From Alphaproteobacteria bacterium (GTDB lineage Bacteria > Pseudomonadota > Alphaproteobacteria > CAAHEQ01 > UBA3637): DNA of 64,000 nucleotides. The position numbers were made by a program, and so were the translations under genes. The stretch lies in assembly GCA_045635565.1 (NCBI GenBank), contig JAZTVX010000054.1, positions 568 to 64,567 of the forward strand, read 5' to 3'. This document shows, piece after piece, positions 29,900 to 55,689 of this stretch. Position 1 is the first letter of the stretch. Every line of letters begins with the position of its first letter. Below the pieces are notes generated by a model. That model had not been told where the DNA came from and did not search any database. It worked only from the letters and a program-made list of their open reading frames with translations.

Positions 29900-31231
29900 G
29901 TGAGTAAGATTTTTATTAAAACATTTGGTTGTCAGATGAATATTTATGATTCTGCCCGTATGCGTGATGCTTTTGGTGTTATGGGATACAGCGAAACTCA
30001 AAATCCGGAAGAAGCGGAAATTTTGCTTTTAAATACTTGTCATATTCGGGAAAAAGCCTCCGAAAAATTATTTTCCGAAATTGGTCGATTGAATGAAATT
30101 AAAACAATGCGTCTTGAACAGGGGTTGAATACACTGATTATTGTTGCCGGATGTGTTGTACAGGCTGAGGGAGAAGAAATTTTGAAACGGGCTCATAGTG
30201 TTGATATTGCTGTCGGACCGCAAAATTATCATCGTTTACCGGAATTAGTTACTCATTACAATCGAAAAAACGGACGTGTTTTAGAAGCACATTTTCCGGC
30301 CGAATCAAAATTTGATTATTTACCTCAAACCAAAGCAACGTCAGCATCAGCATTTTTAGCAATACAAGAAGGATGTGATAATTTTTGTTCTTATTGTGTT
30401 GTACCGTATACAAGAGGGTGTGAATATTCCCGTTCTGCTGATGAAATTCTTTCGGAAGCCCGTGATTTGGTAAAAAGTGGGGCAAAAGAAATCATGTTGT
30501 TAGGACAAAATGTGAATTGTTGGCACGGAAGCGGAGCAACGGATTTAGGAGATTTAATTCGTCAGGTTGCTCAAATTGACGGATTGGAGCGAATTCGTTA
30601 TACGACATCGTATCCTTCAAAAATTACGGAAAATTTGGTTCAGGCACATGCTGATGTTGAAAAGTTAATGCCGTATATTCATTTGCCGATTCAATCCGGT
30701 AGTAATCGGATTTTAAAAGCGATGAATCGTCAATATACGGCAGAAGAATATATCGATATTATTCATCGGTTCAGAAATGCTCGACCTGATATTGCCGTTT
30801 CGTCGGATTTTATTGTCGGGTTTCCTGGTGAAACAGATGAAGATTTTGAAGAAACAATGTCGGTGGTTCGTCAGGTTGGTTACGGTTCGTCATATTCATT
30901 TAAATATAGCCCCAGACCGGGAACACCGGCTGCGTTGATGAAAAATCAAGTGCCCGAAGCCGTCAAAACAGAACGATTATTACGGTTGCAGACATTATTA
31001 TTAGAACAGCAAAAGAAAGCATATGAATCCATGGTTGGAAAAACGGTGTCTGTACTGTTGACGGAAAGAGGTAAAAAAGAAGGTCAGTTAGTCGGTTATA
31101 CGCCGTATTTGCAAACGACACACGTTAATGCTTCGCCAGATTTATTGAATCAAATTGTTTCGTTAAAAATTACAAAGGCAAGTGCAACCTCCTTGTCAAG
31201 TGAGTTGGCTTGTGCTACAATAGAAGAATAG
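29900..31231 (+). CDS. miaB: tRNA-2-methylthio-N6-dimethylallyladenosine synthase
   Basis: GTG start after AAGGAG. FIKTFGCQMNIYDS and radical-SAM CDNFCSYC, with a TRAM-like C-terminus. Confidence 0.9.
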   Translation: MSKIFIKTFGCQMNIYDSARMRDAFGVMGYSETQNPEEAEILLLNTCHIREKASEKLFSEIGRLNEIKTMRLEQGLNTLIIVAGCVVQAEGEEILKRAHSVDIAVGPQNYHRLPELVTHYNRKNGRVLEAHFPAESKFDYLPQTKATSASAFLAIQEGCDNFCSYCVVPYTRGCEYSRSADEILSEARDLVKSGAKEIMLLGQNVNCWHGSGATDLGDLIRQVAQIDGLERIRYTTSYPSKITENLVQAHADVEKLMPYIHLPIQSGSNRILKAMNRQYTAEEYIDIIHRFRNARPDIAVSSDFIVGFPGETDEDFEETMSVVRQVGYGSSYSFKYSPRPGTPAALMKNQVPEAVKTERLLRLQTLLLEQQKKAYESMVGKTVSVLLTERGKKEGQLVGYTPYLQTTHVNASPDLLNQIVSLKITKASATSLSSELACATIEE

Positions 31232-31248
31232 GATAAACAGAAAGGGGA

Positions 31249-31962
31249 ATGGATATGACAGATAAAGGAACATATGTCGCTTCGGAATTGACGTTGCGTA
31301 CTAAAAAAAGACACATCAATCCACGTACGGAAACACAAGGTGTTTTTATTGAAGCGATGAATAAACATGAAATGGTTTTTGGTTTAGGACCTGCCGGAAC
31401 AGGTAAAACATTTTTGGCTGTTGCCAAAGCTGTTTCTGAAATGTTGGAAGGAAAAGTTGATCGAATTATTTTAACTCGTCCTGCTGTTGAAGCCGGTGAA
31501 AATCTTGGTTTTTTGCCTGGTAATTTGAAAGATAAGATTGATCCGTACTTGCGTCCGTTATATGATGCTTTGTATGATATGTTACCATCTGACATTGTTG
31601 ATAAAAAATTGGAAAGTGGTGAAATTGAAATTGCTCCATTGGCTTATATGCGTGGTCGGACGTTAAGTCATTCCGTTGTTATTTTGGATGAAGCACAAAA
31701 CACGACAGCTATGCAAATGAAAATGTTTTTGACACGGTTGGGAGAAGGTTCCAGAATGATTATCAACGGTGACTTGACACAAACTGATTTGCCGAGAGGT
31801 GTTAAATCCGGATTGCTTGATGCTATTCACACATTAAAAAACGTTCCAGAAATTGCATTTGTGACTTTTTCGGAAAAGGATGTTGTCAGACATGGATTAG
31901 TTTCCAAAATTGTTAAAGCATATGAAATGGCAAAAAAGGCGGAAGAAGATTATCATGCCTGA
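31249..31962 (+). CDS. phoH: PhoH-like ATPase (short form, ATPase core only)
   Basis: Walker [13 protein letters not shown] and ILDEAQN. In the miaB-phoH-ybeY order. Confidence 0.85.
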
Positions 31963-32419
31963 TATACAAGTTCAAATCAACGATAAACGGTATTATCGGC
32001 GTGTAAAAGGTATTCGCTTGTTTTGTCAGAAAATTATTGCTCACGTTTGGCATGACTATGAGCCTGCCGAAATTTCACTTGTTTTGGCAGATAATCAGTT
32101 TGTTTGGGAGTTAAATAAGCAATATCGGAATAAAGATTGTCCGACGAATGTTTTATCTTTTGAAACAGGACTTCGACCACAAGGAAATATGCCTTGGGTT
32201 GCCGGTGATATCATTGTTGCTTATGAAACCGTCATGCAGGAGGCCAAAGCACAAGATAAAACTTTTGAGGCACATTTAGCACATTTGTTGATACACGGAA
32301 CATTACATTTGCAAGGATATGACCATATTGATATGAAAGATGCCCGAAAAATGGAAGCCTTGGAAACAACATATATGCTGGAACTTGGCTATGAAGACCC
32401 TTATAAGGATCTTGAATAG
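31955..32419 (+). CDS. ybeY: rRNA maturation endoribonuclease YbeY
   Basis: [15 protein letters not shown] zinc motif. Start at MPDIQVQ overlaps the phoH stop by 8 nt. Confidence 0.9.
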
Positions 32420-32496
32420 TTGTGTGCTGTTAAGGAATAAAGGAAAGGAAGCAATTAAATTTGTTTTTGAATGAATCTTGATGAGAAGTAATCTAT

Positions 32497-33699
32497 ATGA
32501 AAATATTAACGTTTGGGTGTCGTTTAAATACATTTGAATCAGCAATGATAAATAAAATCGGTCATGGCTTGGATAATGTGATACTTGTTAATACATGTGC
32601 CGTTACGGGGGAGGCCGAACGGCAATGTCGTCAGGCTATTCGTAAAGCACATCGTGAATTCCCCGATATGAAAATTATTGTTACGGGGTGTGGGGCTCAA
32701 CTGCATCCGGAAGTTTATGCTACTATGCCGGAAGTGACGCGGGTATTGGGCAATCGTGAAAAACTGTTACCAGAAGCCCTTTTTTCGCAAGAAAAAGTTT
32801 TAGTTGGCGATATCGATGTTTCGGCTCCATGGGACTTGCCGATTGTAACGGATTTTGACGGTCGTGTTCGTGCCTTTTTGCAAATACAACAAGGATGTAA
32901 TCATGCTTGCACGTTTTGTATTGTTCGGAAAGCACGTGGACGAAATGTTGGGATTGAGCCTGTTAAAGTCATCGAACAGGCACGTTGTTTTGTGGAAAAT
33001 GGTTTTGGTGAAATAGTATTGACAGGCGTGGATATTACTTCTTATCCATATGGTTTTAATGCCCTTATTCGTCGTTTATTAACAGAAGTACCCGATTTAA
33101 AAAGATTACGGCTGGGATCATTGGACCCTGCTTGTATCGATGATGAATTGATTGATTTATTTCAAACGTTTCCCGCATTGATGCCTCATCTTCATTTGTC
33201 CGTTCAAGCGGGTGATGATTTAGTGTTAAAGCGGATGGCTCGTCGCCATACACGGACACAGGTTATTGAATTGTGTCGTAAATTACGACGTGTATGTCCG
33301 GATATTGTTTTTGGTGCTGATATTATTACCGGATTTCCGACGGAAACAGAGGCACAATTTATCAATACAATGAGAATGGTTGAAGAAGCGGATATAGCCT
33401 TATTGCATGTCTTCCCATATTCTGTTCGACCTGATACGCCGGCTGCTAAAATGCCGATGGTTGATGTTGGTGTACGAAAAGAACGGGCGTTGCGATTAAG
33501 AATGTTAGGACATCAATTGGAAATAAAGCAACTAGATGCTACTATCGGTCAAACACGGTCGGTTTTGATTGAACAAGAAGGACAGGGATACACGGATAAT
33601 TATTTAAAAGTCAATATTCCGTCAGCTAAGAACATCGGTGAAATTTTATCTGTTAAAATCATACAAAGGAGAGAAAATGAATTGGTTGGAGAAACTTAA
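32497..33699 (+). CDS. mtaB: MiaB-like tRNA methylthiotransferase (MtaB type)
   Basis: ILTFGCRLNTFES and radical-SAM CNHACTFC. 400 aa without a MiaB-type C-terminus. Confidence 0.75.
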   Translation: MKILTFGCRLNTFESAMINKIGHGLDNVILVNTCAVTGEAERQCRQAIRKAHREFPDMKIIVTGCGAQLHPEVYATMPEVTRVLGNREKLLPEALFSQEKVLVGDIDVSAPWDLPIVTDFDGRVRAFLQIQQGCNHACTFCIVRKARGRNVGIEPVKVIEQARCFVENGFGEIVLTGVDITSYPYGFNALIRRLLTEVPDLKRLRLGSLDPACIDDELIDLFQTFPALMPHLHLSVQAGDDLVLKRMARRHTRTQVIELCRKLRRVCPDIVFGADIITGFPTETEAQFINTMRMVEEADIALLHVFPYSVRPDTPAAKMPMVDVGVRKERALRLRMLGHQLEIKQLDATIGQTRSVLIEQEGQGYTDNYLKVNIPSAKNIGEILSVKIIQRRENELVGET

Positions 33700-34552
33700 A
33701 TTTGGTCTCAAAAAAACGGCACGCATCTTATCCGGCGTCAAAATGGATATGTCTTCTTTGGAAGCAATAGAAGAGTCTTTGTTGCAGGCAGATGTTGGGG
33801 TTAGTACGACAATGCAATTGATTGATGAATTGAAAATCCGTCATCCGAAAGATGAACACGAAACACGTCAAATCATTCGTGAAAAATTGTTGGAAAAATT
33901 GACACCGAGTGAACAACCGTTAATTATTGAAACTACGCACAAACCATATATTATTTTAATGATTGGCGTAAATGGTGCCGGTAAAACGACAACCATTGGT
34001 AAGATGGGTATGCAGTACAAAAAACAAGGATATCGTTTGTCCTTAGTTGCTGGAGATACATTTCGAGCCGGTGCAACGGAACAATTACAACAATGGGGTG
34101 AAAAAATTGGTTGTCCGGTGTATGCAAATCCGAATACTGATTCGGCCGGACTTATTTTTGATGCGATTAAAAATGCTCAAAAATCACAAGATGATATCTT
34201 ATTGATTGACACGGCTGGACGATTGCATAACCGATCTGATTTAATGGCAGAACTAAGTAAAATTGTCCGTGTCATACAAAAATGTGATGTAACGGCTCCA
34301 CATGCCGGTGTTTTGGTGTTAGATGCAACCGTTGGACAAAATGCGTTGGCTCAAGTTGAAACTTTTTCAAAAATGACCAAAGTAACCGGTTTGATTATGA
34401 CAAAATTAGATGGTACGGCTAAAGGTGGTATTTTATTAGCATTATCCGATAAATTCGGTTTACCGATACATGCTATTGGTATTGGTGAACAAATAGAAGA
34501 TCTTAATACGTTTAAAGCAACGGATTATGTTGAAGCATTGTTAGGAGAATAA
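33677..34552 (+). CDS. ftsY: Signal recognition particle receptor FtsY (short form)
   Basis: SD AAAGGAGAG. GVNGAGKTTTIGK, DTAGR and TKLDGTAKGG motifs. Confidence 0.9.
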   Translation: MNWLEKLKFGLKKTARILSGVKMDMSSLEAIEESLLQADVGVSTTMQLIDELKIRHPKDEHETRQIIREKLLEKLTPSEQPLIIETTHKPYIILMIGVNGAGKTTTIGKMGMQYKKQGYRLSLVAGDTFRAGATEQLQQWGEKIGCPVYANPNTDSAGLIFDAIKNAQKSQDDILLIDTAGRLHNRSDLMAELSKIVRVIQKCDVTAPHAGVLVLDATVGQNALAQVETFSKMTKVTGLIMTKLDGTAKGGILLALSDKFGLPIHAIGIGEQIEDLNTFKATDYVEALLGE

Positions 34553-34560
34553 AAAGTAAA

Positions 34561-37341
34561 ATGGGTTTATTTAAAAAGATATTTGTAACTGCTTCTCAAA
34601 TGCCGGCTTTTCAAATCAGTCTGTTGTTTTTTATTATGTTTTTGGCAATTGTTAAATCAACGGCGTTGACATTTTTAGATGTTAGTGCCGTTCATTTTAT
34701 GTTGACTGAAACGTCACGTCGGGCGTTAGGCGTTGATTTAATAGCCGTTTCAATATTATTGGGTTTCGTTGGTTATAAAACACGTTTGTTGTACCGTCGA
34801 AAAGGGTATGGCTCATTTGTTTTAATGACAATGCTGATATTGACTCTCATTGCTATTATTGGTTTAATTGAATATCCGTTTCCTGAAATTTACAATATTC
34901 TTTTTATTTTAAAATATGCTTTCTTTTTGCTGGTTAATGCTGTTTTTTGGTCTGTGTGCAGTCGTTTCTTTATGTTAATGACAACATCATTCAAATTTAT
35001 TTTTCTGCTGATTTCTGAAAGCATTGGTTATATTTTAGGTGGCAGTTTGATTTGGTTTGGCAGTATCGGAGCATACGGTTTATTGTATTACAGTGTCGCA
35101 TTATTGATTGTTTTGTATGCCGGCATATACGTTTTAACTCAAATGAAGCCTGTTGCCAAAGAAGTTTTTATTAAGCCGGTTGGTGAAGCACAGGATTTTA
35201 CCGAACAAAAAATGGTTCGGACGGTGTTAATGTTTAGTTTTTTTCTGATGACCGCTTTTTGTATTATGAATTATATTTTTTATACGGAAACAGTTTTAAT
35301 TTATCAGGGTAAAGAAATTTTAAAACGCATGGCTTTGTGGTGGGGATTATTTGGATTAGCGGAATGTGTTTTATCGTTAACATTACTTCGTCAACGGTTT
35401 TTTTATTTGCTGTCCGGTAATATGACATTGACGGCCGTTACAATGGTTTTAATGGCTTTGGGTGTTTTTTATCACAATTATTATATGGTTTTCAGCGCAT
35501 TTTTGGTGGTATCTGTCATTTTATACATGCATTATCTCGGATTTGTGGATATTTTATTGAAAACTTTGCGTGTGAGTGGTAATCATAGCATCAATTTAAA
35601 ACGAGTTTTTTTGATTGAACCGACGGGATTTATGTTAGGTGGTATTATGGTGTATCATCTGTCATCATTATTGGATTTATCATATGTTTTATTGATTTTA
35701 AGTGTTGTTTCGTTTTGTTTATTGATAAGTTCTTTTTATTTTTATGCCAATGTATTACTCAAATCCATGCGATTACGGGAATGGCGTTCGGCTTCCCTTG
35801 TTTTTGCATCACAACGGGTTTTTGATTACATTAAAAAGGAGTTACCAACTGTATCACCGGATGAAGTTATTTACTTTTTACGAGTGTTGGAAATTTCACA
35901 ACATCCGATTTACATGAAAACCGTTTTAAAATCGTTAAAACATACGTCGGAAAAAGTGCGTTTTTTTGCACTGGACTGCATCCGTCACACTTCAGATTTA
36001 AGTCGCTATCAATCAACGGTTCAATTCATTTTTAATACGGATGCGTCCGTTTCTGTTCGTCGGCAAGCATTGGCTATCTTGATACAAATTGCCGAACAAA
36101 AAGAAGATACACAGTTACTGGATTCATATGCTGTTTATTTAGATAATCCTTCATTGAGAAGTGGGGCGATGATCGGTTTTTTAACAGCTGGGGGCAATCA
36201 TGCCTTATTGGCGATGGATGGATTGCAACAAATGTCAACCAGCAATAAAACCAGCGATAAGTTATTGGCGTTGCAGGTTATGAAGGAGGCCCCATCTTCC
36301 GGTTTGATACGGTTGTTAATGCCTCTTTTAAAAAACAGAGATATGCAAATTGCACCGGAAGCCATGAAAATTGCCGGTTTGATTAAACATGCCGAATCCT
36401 TACCGTTTATTTTATCTGCCATTGATGATATTGAATTACAGGAAAATGCACTGGTTGCGTTAAAAATGTTTGGTGTTCAGTCATATCCGTTGATTGAAAG
36501 AACTCTCCATAACATCGAAACAAGTGCTTTTCGTCAAAAAGTCTTGATTTTGTTTTTAACGATGCAAGATGATGTGGAAAGTAAGCAGGTGTTATTGCGT
36601 GCGTTGAAAATTGGTAATCAAAAATTACGAAAAGCCATTATACGGGGCATGATTGATACAGATGTATTTTGGACGCATAAAAGCAAGTATTCGTTATTGA
36701 AAAAAGGGATTGAAGCCGATTTTCAACGAATTGTTTTTTTTGAACAGTTTTTAAAAAAATACAAACATTCTCCATTACCACAGGCACAAGATGCTTTCGC
36801 TTTTTTAATCAGGGCTATAACAGAAGATATCGAAGAAACACGTCAACTTATTTTTTATCAATTATTGTTATTGAATCGTAGTAAATTGTTCACGAAAGCT
36901 GTTCGTATTTTGTTGAGTGAAAATGAACCCGTTTATCCGATAGCGCTCGGTACATTACAAGATTTGTTACGCAAAGATTTGTATAAAATTATTGAGCAGG
37001 TTACATGTTTTTCATTAGAAAATCAAAAAGAGGTAATTTCATCATCTGTACCGGTTGATGAAGCCGTTGAGGATTTGTGTCAGTTGTTTTTAAAACCGTC
37101 ATTTCCTTTAGCACCGTGGATACAAGCCAACATTTTAAACTGTTTGCGAAAATTAGGCCATGTTAATGGTATGCGGGCCGTTTTGGTTGGTTTAAAAAGT
37201 CATAATGCTTTGGTTATGGAAGCATCAGTTGAAGCCTTATGTCGTTTAGAAGAAAATCAGGAAAACTTAAATAAAATTCTCCTGACTGTTCCGACAAGCA
37301 TTTTGGTAACGCTTAATTTAGATTCTTTATTAAAACAATAG
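34561..37341 (+). CDS. Fusion protein: transporter-like domain of about 12 TM helices (possibly TLC/NTT- or MFS-like) plus a C-terminal HEAT/ARM-repeat domain of about 500 aa
   Basis: About 12 hydrophobic helices fall in the first roughly 400 aa. Repeated helical-pair motifs follow (EKVRFFALDCIRH, VSVRRQALAILIQIAE, PSLRSGAMIGFL, ALVMEASVEALCRLEE). Confidence 0.65.
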   Translation: MGLFKKIFVTASQMPAFQISLLFFIMFLAIVKSTALTFLDVSAVHFMLTETSRRALGVDLIAVSILLGFVGYKTRLLYRRKGYGSFVLMTMLILTLIAIIGLIEYPFPEIYNILFILKYAFFLLVNAVFWSVCSRFFMLMTTSFKFIFLLISESIGYILGGSLIWFGSIGAYGLLYYSVALLIVLYAGIYVLTQMKPVAKEVFIKPVGEAQDFTEQKMVRTVLMFSFFLMTAFCIMNYIFYTETVLIYQGKEILKRMALWWGLFGLAECVLSLTLLRQRFFYLLSGNMTLTAVTMVLMALGVFYHNYYMVFSAFLVVSVILYMHYLGFVDILLKTLRVSGNHSINLKRVFLIEPTGFMLGGIMVYHLSSLLDLSYVLLILSVVSFCLLISSFYFYANVLLKSMRLREWRSASLVFASQRVFDYIKKELPTVSPDEVIYFLRVLEISQHPIYMKTVLKSLKHTSEKVRFFALDCIRHTSDLSRYQSTVQFIFNTDASVSVRRQALAILIQIAEQKEDTQLLDSYAVYLDNPSLRSGAMIGFLTAGGNHALLAMDGLQQMSTSNKTSDKLLALQVMKEAPSSGLIRLLMPLLKNRDMQIAPEAMKIAGLIKHAESLPFILSAIDDIELQENALVALKMFGVQSYPLIERTLHNIETSAFRQKVLILFLTMQDDVESKQVLLRALKIGNQKLRKAIIRGMIDTDVFWTHKSKYSLLKKGIEADFQRIVFFEQFLKKYKHSPLPQAQDAFAFLIRAITEDIEETRQLIFYQLLLLNRSKLFTKAVRILLSENEPVYPIALGTLQDLLRKDLYKIIEQVTCFSLENQKEVISSSVPVDEAVEDLCQLFLKPSFPLAPWIQANILNCLRKLGHVNGMRAVLVGLKSHNALVMEASVEALCRLEENQENLNKILLTVPTSILVTLNLDSLLKQ

Positions 37342-37350
37342 GAGAAGTTA

Positions 37351-37773
37351 ATGTCAAATACATTTGATAAAGTTTTAATTTTAAAAAATATTTCGTTGTT
37401 TGAAGGGGCTTCCGAAATGGCATTGTCTGATTTAATTTCCGTTTCCGAAGAAAAGACATACAAAGCCGGTGAAGAATTATTGAAAAAAGATGTGGAAAAT
37501 TCCCATTTATACATTGTGTTGTCCGGTAACATTTATTGTACGGATAAGGATGGAACGGTAACCGAATTAGGGGCACGTCAATTTTTTGGTGAAACGACAG
37601 TATTTAGTCCGGCCGTTATTCCTTTTTCTGTAAAGGCTAGTGAACGGACAAGTGTTTTAAGGATTAGTTCTAATCGACTGTATCATATGATTTCATTACA
37701 TCCCTCCATTGCCAGAGGTTTTATTGGAGAATTATCCAAGAGATTACAACGAGGTTATATCAGAAATATTTAA
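37351..37773 (+). CDS. Stand-alone cyclic-nucleotide-binding domain protein
   Basis: SD GGAGAAG. LKNISLFEG..., FFGETTVFS...RTSVLRISS phosphate-binding-cassette-like segment. 140 aa. Confidence 0.7.
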   Translation: MSNTFDKVLILKNISLFEGASEMALSDLISVSEEKTYKAGEELLKKDVENSHLYIVLSGNIYCTDKDGTVTELGARQFFGETTVFSPAVIPFSVKASERTSVLRISSNRLYHMISLHPSIARGFIGELSKRLQRGYIRNI

Positions 37774-37843
37774 AAATAGTGATTGCTTTTTCGAAAAAAA
37801 GAAACTATCATACGTATAACCATTATTAAAAAAGGAGAAAAAT

Positions 37844-55612: not shown

Positions 55613-55689
55613 GGGCGACTAGCTCAGCTGGTTAGAGCACCTCGTTTACACCGAGGGGGTCTGCGGTTCGAATCCGTAGTCGCCTACCA
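55613..55689 (+). tRNA. tRNA-Val (anticodon TAC), CCA encoded
   Basis: Hand-folded cloverleaf. Acceptor GGGCGAC/GTCGCCT, D-arm GCTC..GAGC, anticodon arm CCTCG-TTTACAC-CGAGG, T-arm TGCGG-TTCGAAT-CCGTA, and ACCA end. Confidence 0.9.

Follow-up and report, generated by a model that had tools for sequence, protein, structure and literature searches.

Within a 64,000-nucleotide stretch of alphaproteobacterial DNA (GenBank assembly GCA_045635565.1, contig JAZTVX010000054.1, positions 568 to 64,567 of the forward strand; hereafter the window), two genes lie side by side downstream of ftsY, the first encoding a protein of 926 amino acids (aa) in which a membrane domain is followed by a HEAT/ARM-like helical domain, and the second a 140-aa protein with the cNBD (cyclic nucleotide-binding domain) fold. 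The locus adds a new and strongly diverged member to a family that is already known but functionally uncharacterised, in which a membrane domain of the nucleotide transporter (NTT; Pfam TLC) type is accompanied by HEAT repeats and a cNBD. The two open reading frames (ORFs) had been picked out in an earlier reading of the bare sequence (hereafter the original prediction), with whose coordinates and sizes (Table 1) the ORF list agrees, and because full-length orthologues exist across many loci we take both to be genuine genes and not chance ORFs.

Architecture of the two proteins

The AlphaFold2 model of the large protein, for which 17 homologues served as input, has a mean predicted local distance difference test score (pLDDT) of 83 and places 12 long helices between residues 16 and 405, as six helices, a 17-residue central loop and six further helices; hydropathy agrees with the model on 12 transmembrane (TM) helices. 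From the end of the TM region to the C-terminus the model continues as an uninterrupted all-helical repeat domain, and the C-terminal half of the protein matches Pfam HEAT_2 and HEAT above their gathering scores, such that the predicted succession of about 12 hydrophobic helices and a HEAT/ARM-like domain is borne out by model and Pfam alike. Searched against the PDB, the family profile matches designed alphaRep and armadillo proteins, and there is a weak match to NblB. Short HEAT-like helical hairpins are common to this domain, to phycobilisome (PBS) lyase/NblB-type proteins and to the alphaRep designs; unlike the PBS-lyase/NblB proteins, however, the window protein offers no evidence of a lyase function, its solenoid is tethered to a transporter, and it carries invariant motifs of its own family (IYFLRVLE, LLAMDGLQ and YQLLLL). 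Basic residues are concentrated at the N-terminus and in the loop between TM2 and TM3 (RRKGYG), and on the strength of the positive-inside rule and the even number of TM helices (12) the N-terminus and the HEAT domain are both predicted to be cytoplasmic. Sequence conservation is higher in the HEAT region than in the TM region (in P0018, for example, identity is 46% over the TM region and 48% overall). The C-terminal tail LL.VPTS.LV (aa 907-916) is nearly invariant in the window family, and is absent from, and unaligned to, the consensus of outgroup NTT-HEAT proteins; the extreme C-terminus (aa 907-926, window positions 37279-37338) is modelled with low pLDDT. The tail could serve as a docking element for the cNBD subunit.

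The small protein matches Pfam cNMP_binding (PF00027) with an E-value of 1e-13 and 51.4 bits against a cut-off of 27.5 bits, over model positions 2-87 of 89, which confirms the stand-alone cyclic nucleotide-binding fold proposed for it. It consists of a beta-barrel and a C-terminal helix, without a DNA-binding or other effector domain, and its profile matches in the PDB are the cNBDs of PKG, PKA-R and CRP. A CRP-type transcription factor was considered and is ruled out, as the protein has neither a helix-turn-helix nor any other effector domain.

Kinship with the NTT-HEAT family

Major, Embley & Williams (Genome Biol Evol 9:480, 2017; PMC5381601) described NTT-HEAT proteins, NTT-HEAT-cNBD fusions and NTT-HEAT genes with a distinct cNBD gene a few nucleotides downstream; they concluded that the architecture arose once and left its function open. 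They stressed that NTT-HEAT proteins occur in free-living bacteria, and noted that the cyanobacterial ones carry the annotation PBS lyase; subsequent papers in which the family is mentioned contribute no data on function. The statement in the original prediction that TLC/NTT domains combined with HEAT repeats, and sometimes with a cyclic nucleotide-binding module, exist without an assigned function was accordingly correct, as was its view that the module is here split into an ORF of its own. The split arrangement is already in print, however, which makes the finding less novel than had been assumed.

The relationship of the window protein to this family was established by profile comparison, using a full-length profile of the window family (A3) and an alignment of 14 NTT-HEAT members of 908-950 aa (A6). 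Outside its own clade, A3 retrieves four proteins only (P0051-P0054), three of which have the NTT-HEAT(-cNBD) architecture, two of which match Pfam TLC and one of which is named an Npt1/Npt2 nucleotide transporter by NCBI; the match to P0051 runs as one colinear domain over positions 4-885. These four proteins were used as seeds to gather the NTT-HEAT family. Thirteen of the 14 members of A6 match Pfam TLC (best E-value 5e-23), MFS_1 is matched by 8 of the 14 A6/outgroup proteins, and one A6 member, P0070, finds Arabidopsis NTT1 (1.5e-14) and Chlamydia pneumoniae NTT1 (1.9e-12) by plain phmmer. When A3 and A6 are compared in full by hhalign, they align with a probability of 100% and an E-value of 1.8e-59 over 873 colinear columns (residues 7-902 against 4-917), the 926 aa of the window protein falling within the 908-950 aa of the family. 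The TM domains alone still align end to end (401 columns, probability 98.6%, E-value 8e-16). Reversing or column-shuffling the target reduced the scores to 15-22 (E>0.07), and three unrelated membrane proteins of the window, taken as negative controls, scored at background. The best matches to single sequences are to peripheral NTT-HEAT members (P0057, P0055, P0079 and P0058), of which P0079 and P0058 act as bridging sequences, being above the TLC gathering score and matching the window-family TM profile as well. The large protein belongs to the NTT (TLC) lineage as an inner-membrane protein with 12 TM helices and the MFS fold; it is homologous to NTT-HEAT proteins over its whole length, and it lies outside TLC as Pfam defines that family. 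We are highly confident of its identity and architecture as a divergent NTT-HEAT-lineage protein, with 12 TM helices and a HEAT domain, accompanied by a separate cNBD gene.

The window family itself is tightly bounded. An exhaustive phmmer search with the TM domain against 1.84 billion representatives returned 34 proteins, all from the family, and nearly all of the full-length members retrieved by phmmer are about 910-933 aa long; the family is therefore narrow and its architecture fixed. At the level of structure, the top membrane matches of the model in a Foldseek search of the PDB are to Arabidopsis NTT1 (AtNTT1; 9j3m_A with an E-value of 3.8e-4 and 9j3l_A with 8.8e-4), with a TM-score of about 0.55 on the target, and the modelled fold is certainly of MFS type. 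It is thus the 12-TM MFS-type fold that the window protein has in common with the canonical NTT/TLC proteins, represented here by Arabidopsis NTT1, Chlamydia pneumoniae NTT1/Npt1 and Rickettsia Tlc1 (PDB 9j3l, 9j3m, 9j3n; PF03219; TCDB 2.A.12), from which it differs in having no direct sequence match to them, in a membrane domain of about 400 aa instead of about 500 aa, and in possessing the additional HEAT domain and a cNBD partner.

The small protein, too, can be tied to the same family. Against a profile of its own family, the cNBDs at the C-termini of the fused NTT-HEAT-cNBD proteins P0058-P0063 score 96-101 bits and the split partners of P0072 and P0076, which come from other phyla, 74-79 bits; PDB chains with a single matched cNBD reach at most about 55 bits, and E. 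coli CRP 29 bits. With the 141-aa partner of P0072 the 140-aa protein aligns without gaps from Met1. Judged by these scores, it is an orthologue of the cNBD that in other phyla is fused to NTT-HEAT proteins or encoded downstream of them, and from this orthology follows a Rosetta-stone argument for a physical association of the two window proteins. The order and sizes are likewise those described by Major et al., namely a 12-TM and HEAT protein of about 910-950 aa followed within a few nucleotides by a cNBD gene for about 140-150 aa, with homology that is colinear along the whole large protein and a cNBD whose specific relatives are the family's fused and split cNBDs. What sets the window locus apart is a TM domain that has diverged beyond direct detection by Pfam TLC, a set of conserved residues of its own (D40, K118, R135, R348 and E353-P354), a cNBD without the arginine and the serine/threonine of the phosphate-binding cassette, and a restriction of the clade to metagenome-assembled genomes (MAGs) of gut and rumen Alphaproteobacteria with a fixed gene order.

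Gene layout, distribution and synteny

The stop codon of ftsY and the start of the large ORF are 8 nucleotides (nt) apart. The large ORF ends with TAG at 37339-37341, and this stop is overlapped by an AGGAG 6 nt upstream of the small ORF's ATG; the cNBD gene thus has the Shine-Dalgarno sequence that had been predicted for it, whereas the intergenic gap is 9 nt and not 10. Stop-to-start gaps of about 2-13 nt are found in 21 of 23 orthologous loci, and in the other two the ORF calls extend upstream; these gaps were measured from the end of the tblastn match and are approximate in the most divergent loci. The 9-nt gap and the overlapping Shine-Dalgarno sequence suggest translational coupling of the two genes. 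The terminator scan predicts no terminators in the intervals that separate ftsY from the large gene and the latter from the cNBD gene, and promoter and terminator scans around the gene pair gave sites that were fewer, or no more, than in shuffled sequence. Base composition gives no sign of a recent transfer of the locus, its GC content (about 35%) being the same as in the remaining window; a T-rich AT skew at 34-36 kb fits the coding of a membrane domain rich in Phe, Leu and Ile. A repeat scan found short chance matches only, and antisense ORFs within the locus (36198-36422, 37257-37532 and 37313-37576) are regarded as spurious.

Table 1. Features of the gene pair, in window coordinates
Feature	Position	Strand	Evidence
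Large gene, 926-aa NTT-HEAT-type protein	34561..37341	+	ORF list, TAG stop included; full-length orthologues; colinear hhalign match
Membrane domain, aa 1-410, 12 TM in 6+6 MFS-type arrangement, divergent NTT/TLC-like	34561..35790	+	AlphaFold2, Foldseek, hhalign
HEAT/ARM-like alpha-solenoid, aa 418-926, predicted cytoplasmic	35812..37338	+	Pfam HEAT_2/HEAT, PDB profile matches, AlphaFold2, invariant columns
AGGAG Shine-Dalgarno sequence of cNBD gene	37340..37344	+	Sequence; overlaps upstream stop codon
Small gene, 140-aa stand-alone cNBD-fold protein	37351..37773	+	Pfam cNMP_binding
Degenerate phosphate-binding cassette, aa 79-96 (FGETTVFSPAVIPFSVKA)	37585..37638	+	Alignments to PKG cNBDs, linked cNBDs and CRP

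Full-length orthologues of the large protein, at 26-87% identity, are encoded in 24 genome loci and also make up about 34 clusters at 50% identity; every one of the 24 loci lies in a MAG of uncultured Alphaproteobacteria, and the sources are mostly the caecum, colon, rectum, rumen or abomasum of ruminants, with rabbits in addition. The suggestion of a probable intracellular bacterium finds no support here, the relatives being gut and rumen MAGs and NTT-HEAT proteins being widespread in free-living bacteria. Co-conservation of the two genes, in turn, is borne out: where the locus is long enough to tell, all 22 have them next to each other, even where the large protein is no more than 27% identical, and split pairs recur in the outgroup. 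In the latter, the 913-aa P0072 is paired with a cNBD protein of 141 aa (L026) and the 915-aa P0076 with one of 152 aa (L029), the cNBD gene lying 2-20 nt downstream across these two loci.

The wider gene order mtaB-ftsY-X-cNBD-ppiC, where X is the large gene, is kept in every long-enough locus with X identity down to 27%. Neither ftsY nor ppiC is present in the six outgroup NTT-HEAT loci (L025-L030), and some of these do have a split cNBD, for which reason adjacency to ftsY is a clade-specific synteny and the NTT-HEAT/cNBD adjacency ancient. The position of the pair directly after ftsY was correctly noted in the original prediction; a functional link to ftsY is rejected given its absence outside the clade. 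Among the other outgroup loci, L028 has, as the divergent neighbour of its NTT-HEAT gene, a fused TLC-HEAT-cNBD paralogue of 1242 aa, and L030 is without a split cNBD, a metallophosphoesterase or a fused paralogue as neighbour. In L025 and L027, two unrelated metagenomic contigs, a gene for a protein of about 415-433 aa with a Metallophos domain (PF00149; L025:2690-3991 and L027:1757-3004) lies immediately upstream of an NTT-HEAT gene without a downstream cNBD, ending 10 nt before it or overlapping it by 4 nt, and may be an alternative conserved partner of NTT-HEAT, for example a phosphodiesterase. Elsewhere among the outgroup loci signalling genes adjoin the module: a PAS-HisKA kinase and a response regulator directly follow the cNBD gene (L026:7189-9352), a gene with an HD domain converges on the cNBD gene (L029:6197-6787), and a Response_reg-HD_5 protein is encoded nearby (L028:6731-7801).

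The window neighbours (miaB, phoH, ybeY, mtaB, ftsY, a PpiC-type isomerase, mutL and pgi) are all ordinary housekeeping genes, and 29900-38944 forms a long co-directional block from miaB through phoH, ybeY, mtaB, ftsY, the NTT-HEAT gene and the cNBD gene to the PpiC-type isomerase. The longest ORF for ftsY begins with a GTG at 33638 and shares 62 nt (33638-33699) with the end of mtaB; the true start is probably an internal Met (MNWLEKLKFGL...) a few codons downstream, and orthologue alignments begin at about residues 2-14. Between mutL and pgi, a 245-aa ORF on the minus strand (40934-41671) is without a Pfam match at E<=1e-5. An Rfam scan of the whole window gave a single match, a tRNA at 55613-55686, distant from the locus.

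Proposed coupling of the two proteins and its alternatives

The conservation table of the window family lists D40 in TM1, K118 in TM4, F129-W130, R135, K145, G156, R348, E353-P354-x-G356 and Y395, and the conserved residues gather in the cytoplasmic loops and at the hinge between TM12 and the HEAT domain. Comparison with AtNTT1 and Chlamydia pneumoniae NTT1 was made at the level of motifs, and by way of the NTT-HEAT intermediates the FW at the end of TM4, the basic K145 of the TM4-5 loop, several glycines and the invariant Y395 at the exit of TM12 are common to the window family and NTTs. The canonical signatures are otherwise largely gone; in their place stand the family-specific R135-F, S143-x-K145-F and R348...E353-P-x-G-F. 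Within the membrane, D40 is acidic in 23 of 23 members and K118 basic in 22 of 23, and they align to a lysine and a hydrophobic residue, respectively, in the NTT-HEAT consensus.

The phosphate-binding cassette of the small protein is similarly altered. In the window protein it reads GETTVFSPAVIPFS, where most linked cNBDs have GE[LM]A.L....PR[ST]AS: G80 and E81 are kept, while I90 stands at the Arg, P91 at the Ser/Thr and F92 at the Ala position. Across 23 orthologues the Arg position is occupied by Ile or Leu, except that the two most divergent have non-basic residues of another kind there; Pro takes the Ser/Thr position in nearly all. The arginine at this position (R82 of CRP, R209 of PKA RIalpha) makes the key phosphate contact and is the main determinant of affinity for cyclic nucleotides. 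Since both it and the Ser/Thr are lost, canonical sensing of cAMP or cGMP by the 140-aa protein is doubtful, and we deem canonical binding of cyclic nucleotides unlikely; of the cyclic-nucleotide sensor that had been envisaged, then, the Gly-Glu of the cassette holds up and its Arg and Ser/Thr do not. Degenerate cassettes also occur in other lineages of the module (P0084, P0086, P0077, P0078 and the P0072 partner, the last without the Glu), and non-binding cNBDs are known in the third cNBD of Plasmodium PKG and the cyclic nucleotide-binding homology domain (CNBHD) of KCNH channels. The fold and the Gly-Glu are those of the cNBDs of CRP, PKA-R, PKG and cyclic nucleotide-gated channels (PF00027), and as in the SthK and MloK1 channels a small regulatory module is attached to a membrane transport protein; unlike the known cNBDs, the window protein stands alone at 140 aa, lacks an effector domain and is missing the canonical phosphate clamp. 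At the same time identities of 32-60% for the transporter go with 54-69% for the cNBD, and because its identity exceeds that of the transporter the cNBD is, to judge from these alignments, clearly functional and under strong constraint.

We consider the best overall explanation, with a probability of roughly 0.6, to be that the gene pair represents the NTT-HEAT + cNBD module in a diverged alphaproteobacterial form, in which the cNBD acts as a regulatory subunit. The 140-aa protein would be co-translated with the HEAT solenoid, bind to it and act in a secondary transporter as its regulatory subunit; through the HEAT domain, the cNBD's state would be relayed to the cytoplasmic gate of an MFS rocker-switch, whose elements may be the Y395/W408 hinge together with the conserved loops TM4-5 and TM10-11. 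Docking on the solenoid is inferred from the fusions in relatives, the tight geometry of the coupled genes and their co-conservation, and we regard a physical and regulatory coupling of the two proteins as reasonably probable. With the clamp Arg and Ser/Thr lost and the cNBD nonetheless better conserved than the transporter, it is here probably a structural or allosteric subunit that binds no cAMP or cGMP, or that binds a different ligand. As to the substrate, the family would lead one to expect a nucleotide or some other phosphorylated metabolite, but most of the canonical NTT motifs have been replaced; a nucleotide is a tentative assignment, less likely than not, and there is no ground for assuming that ATP/ADP transport has been retained.

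A number of observations weigh against this explanation. Pfam TLC gave no match at E<=1 with either the whole protein or its N-terminal 410 aa, MFS_1 (PF07690) matches neither the window protein nor its 23 relatives, TLC and MFS_1 are without a match at E<=10 in all 23 family members, and scans against Pfam and NCBIfam, taken to E up to 10 with the TM domains of the window protein and of 23 relatives, returned neither TLC nor MFS. Sequence searches of the PDB with full-length and TM-only profiles yielded HEAT/ARM proteins plus one spurious match to an acetylcholine-receptor TM segment. In the Foldseek comparison SotB, MdfA, FLVCR1 and VMAT2 follow close behind AtNTT1, and with scores this close among generic MFS transporters, the fold by itself does not diagnose an NTT; a structural preference for NTT over generic MFS is weakly supported by the model. 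When the TM profile is set by hhalign against single, strongly TLC-positive sequences (P0064, P0070, P0087, P0089 and P0090), scores remain at background, and the link from the window TM domain to canonical NTTs is for this reason read as a transitive one. The proposal that the membrane domain is TLC/NTT rather than generic MFS is hence upheld by remote homology and not by direct matches to Pfam TLC or MFS_1. The NTT signatures FW.FAN....EAKRFY (TM4-5), KYSLFD..KE.AYIPLD and K.KGKAAID (around TM10-11) have dwindled in the window protein to FW...K and a few glycines. An intact cassette of the form G-E ... R-[ST]-A is likewise not present, Arg occupying its position in 0 of 23 orthologues, and the degenerate cassette argues against the simplest regulatory model. 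Within the clade, adjacency of the two genes could in part reflect general synteny. Last, a literature search found no transport, binding or interaction data for any NTT-HEAT protein.

Some of these same observations lend themselves to a second explanation, in which an MFS-type transporter built on the NTT-HEAT scaffold, its pocket re-lined by D40 and K118, carries a non-nucleotide substrate, and the cNBD senses another molecule or is constitutively bound. The conservation of D40 (23/23) and K118 (22/23) inside TM1 and TM4, unlike the NTT-HEAT consensus, the loss of TLC motifs and the degenerate cassette all favour it, and there are well-known cNBD folds with other ligands or with no ligand (CooA, CprK, PrfA and the KCNH CNBHD). 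There is, however, nothing positive for any alternative substrate or ligand, and the residue mapping rests on a remote alignment at 13% identity; we see this as possible, if on the unlikely side. A fuller form of the idea, less likely still, is that the module has been repurposed in this clade, with a pocket re-lined for a non-nucleotide substrate and the cNBD, its cyclic-phosphate clamp lost but its constraint stronger than that on the transporter, as a gating subunit independent of cyclic nucleotides, which might sense another metabolite or, much as in the KCNH CNBHD, might have the clade-specific transporter tail LL.VPTS.LV for its intrinsic ligand.

A canonical cyclic-nucleotide-gated nucleotide importer, in which the 140-aa protein would bind cAMP or cGMP and switch an NTT that transports ATP/ADP or nucleoside triphosphates, is in keeping with membership in the NTT-HEAT lineage, with the GE...R[ST]A cassette that most NTT-HEAT-linked cNBDs keep, with the retention of G80 and E81 here, and with the control of ATP uptake by cAMP that was proposed by Major et al. 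(PMC5381601). We nevertheless hold it to be distinctly unlikely for the window pair, in view of a non-basic residue at the Arg position in 23 of 23 orthologues, Pro at the Ser/Thr position in nearly all, canonical NTT motifs that are mostly lost, and the failure to identify a cyclase in a scan limited to nine neighbouring genes. Least probable is a non-transporting membrane-anchored HEAT scaffold or "transceptor", whose TM domain would anchor or sense and which might have a link to membrane-protein biogenesis through ftsY and ppiC: the clustering of conserved residues in the cytoplasmic loops and the TM12-HEAT hinge, the better conservation of the HEAT domain and the constant synteny with ftsY and the PpiC-type isomerase within the clade would agree with it, but a complete 12-TM MFS fold with intramembrane charged residues is kept at more than 70% sequence divergence, the ftsY/ppiC adjacency is absent from outgroup loci, and what surrounds the pair is a long co-directional block of ordinary housekeeping genes.

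The novelties of the locus are modest, and comprise a clade of gut and rumen Alphaproteobacteria, divergence past Pfam TLC, a cassette that lacks Arg throughout the clade, and a C-terminal tail that is conserved in the family but missing from the outgroup consensus. NTT-HEAT(-cNBD) proteins have a wide distribution, occurring in cyanobacteria, Chlamydia trachomatis, oomycetes and many free-living bacteria, none with an assigned function, and the gene pair is in itself no sign of energy parasitism or of an intracellular lifestyle. With the clade described here the family reaches into gut Alphaproteobacteria and covers sequences that Pfam TLC fails to recognise, and surveys that rely on the TLC profile therefore undercount it. 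The clade also provides a natural variant in which the partner cNBD is without the contacts to the cyclic phosphate and yet is highly conserved, and comparison with canonical partners could show whether the cNBD of this module is a ligand sensor or mainly a structural subunit.

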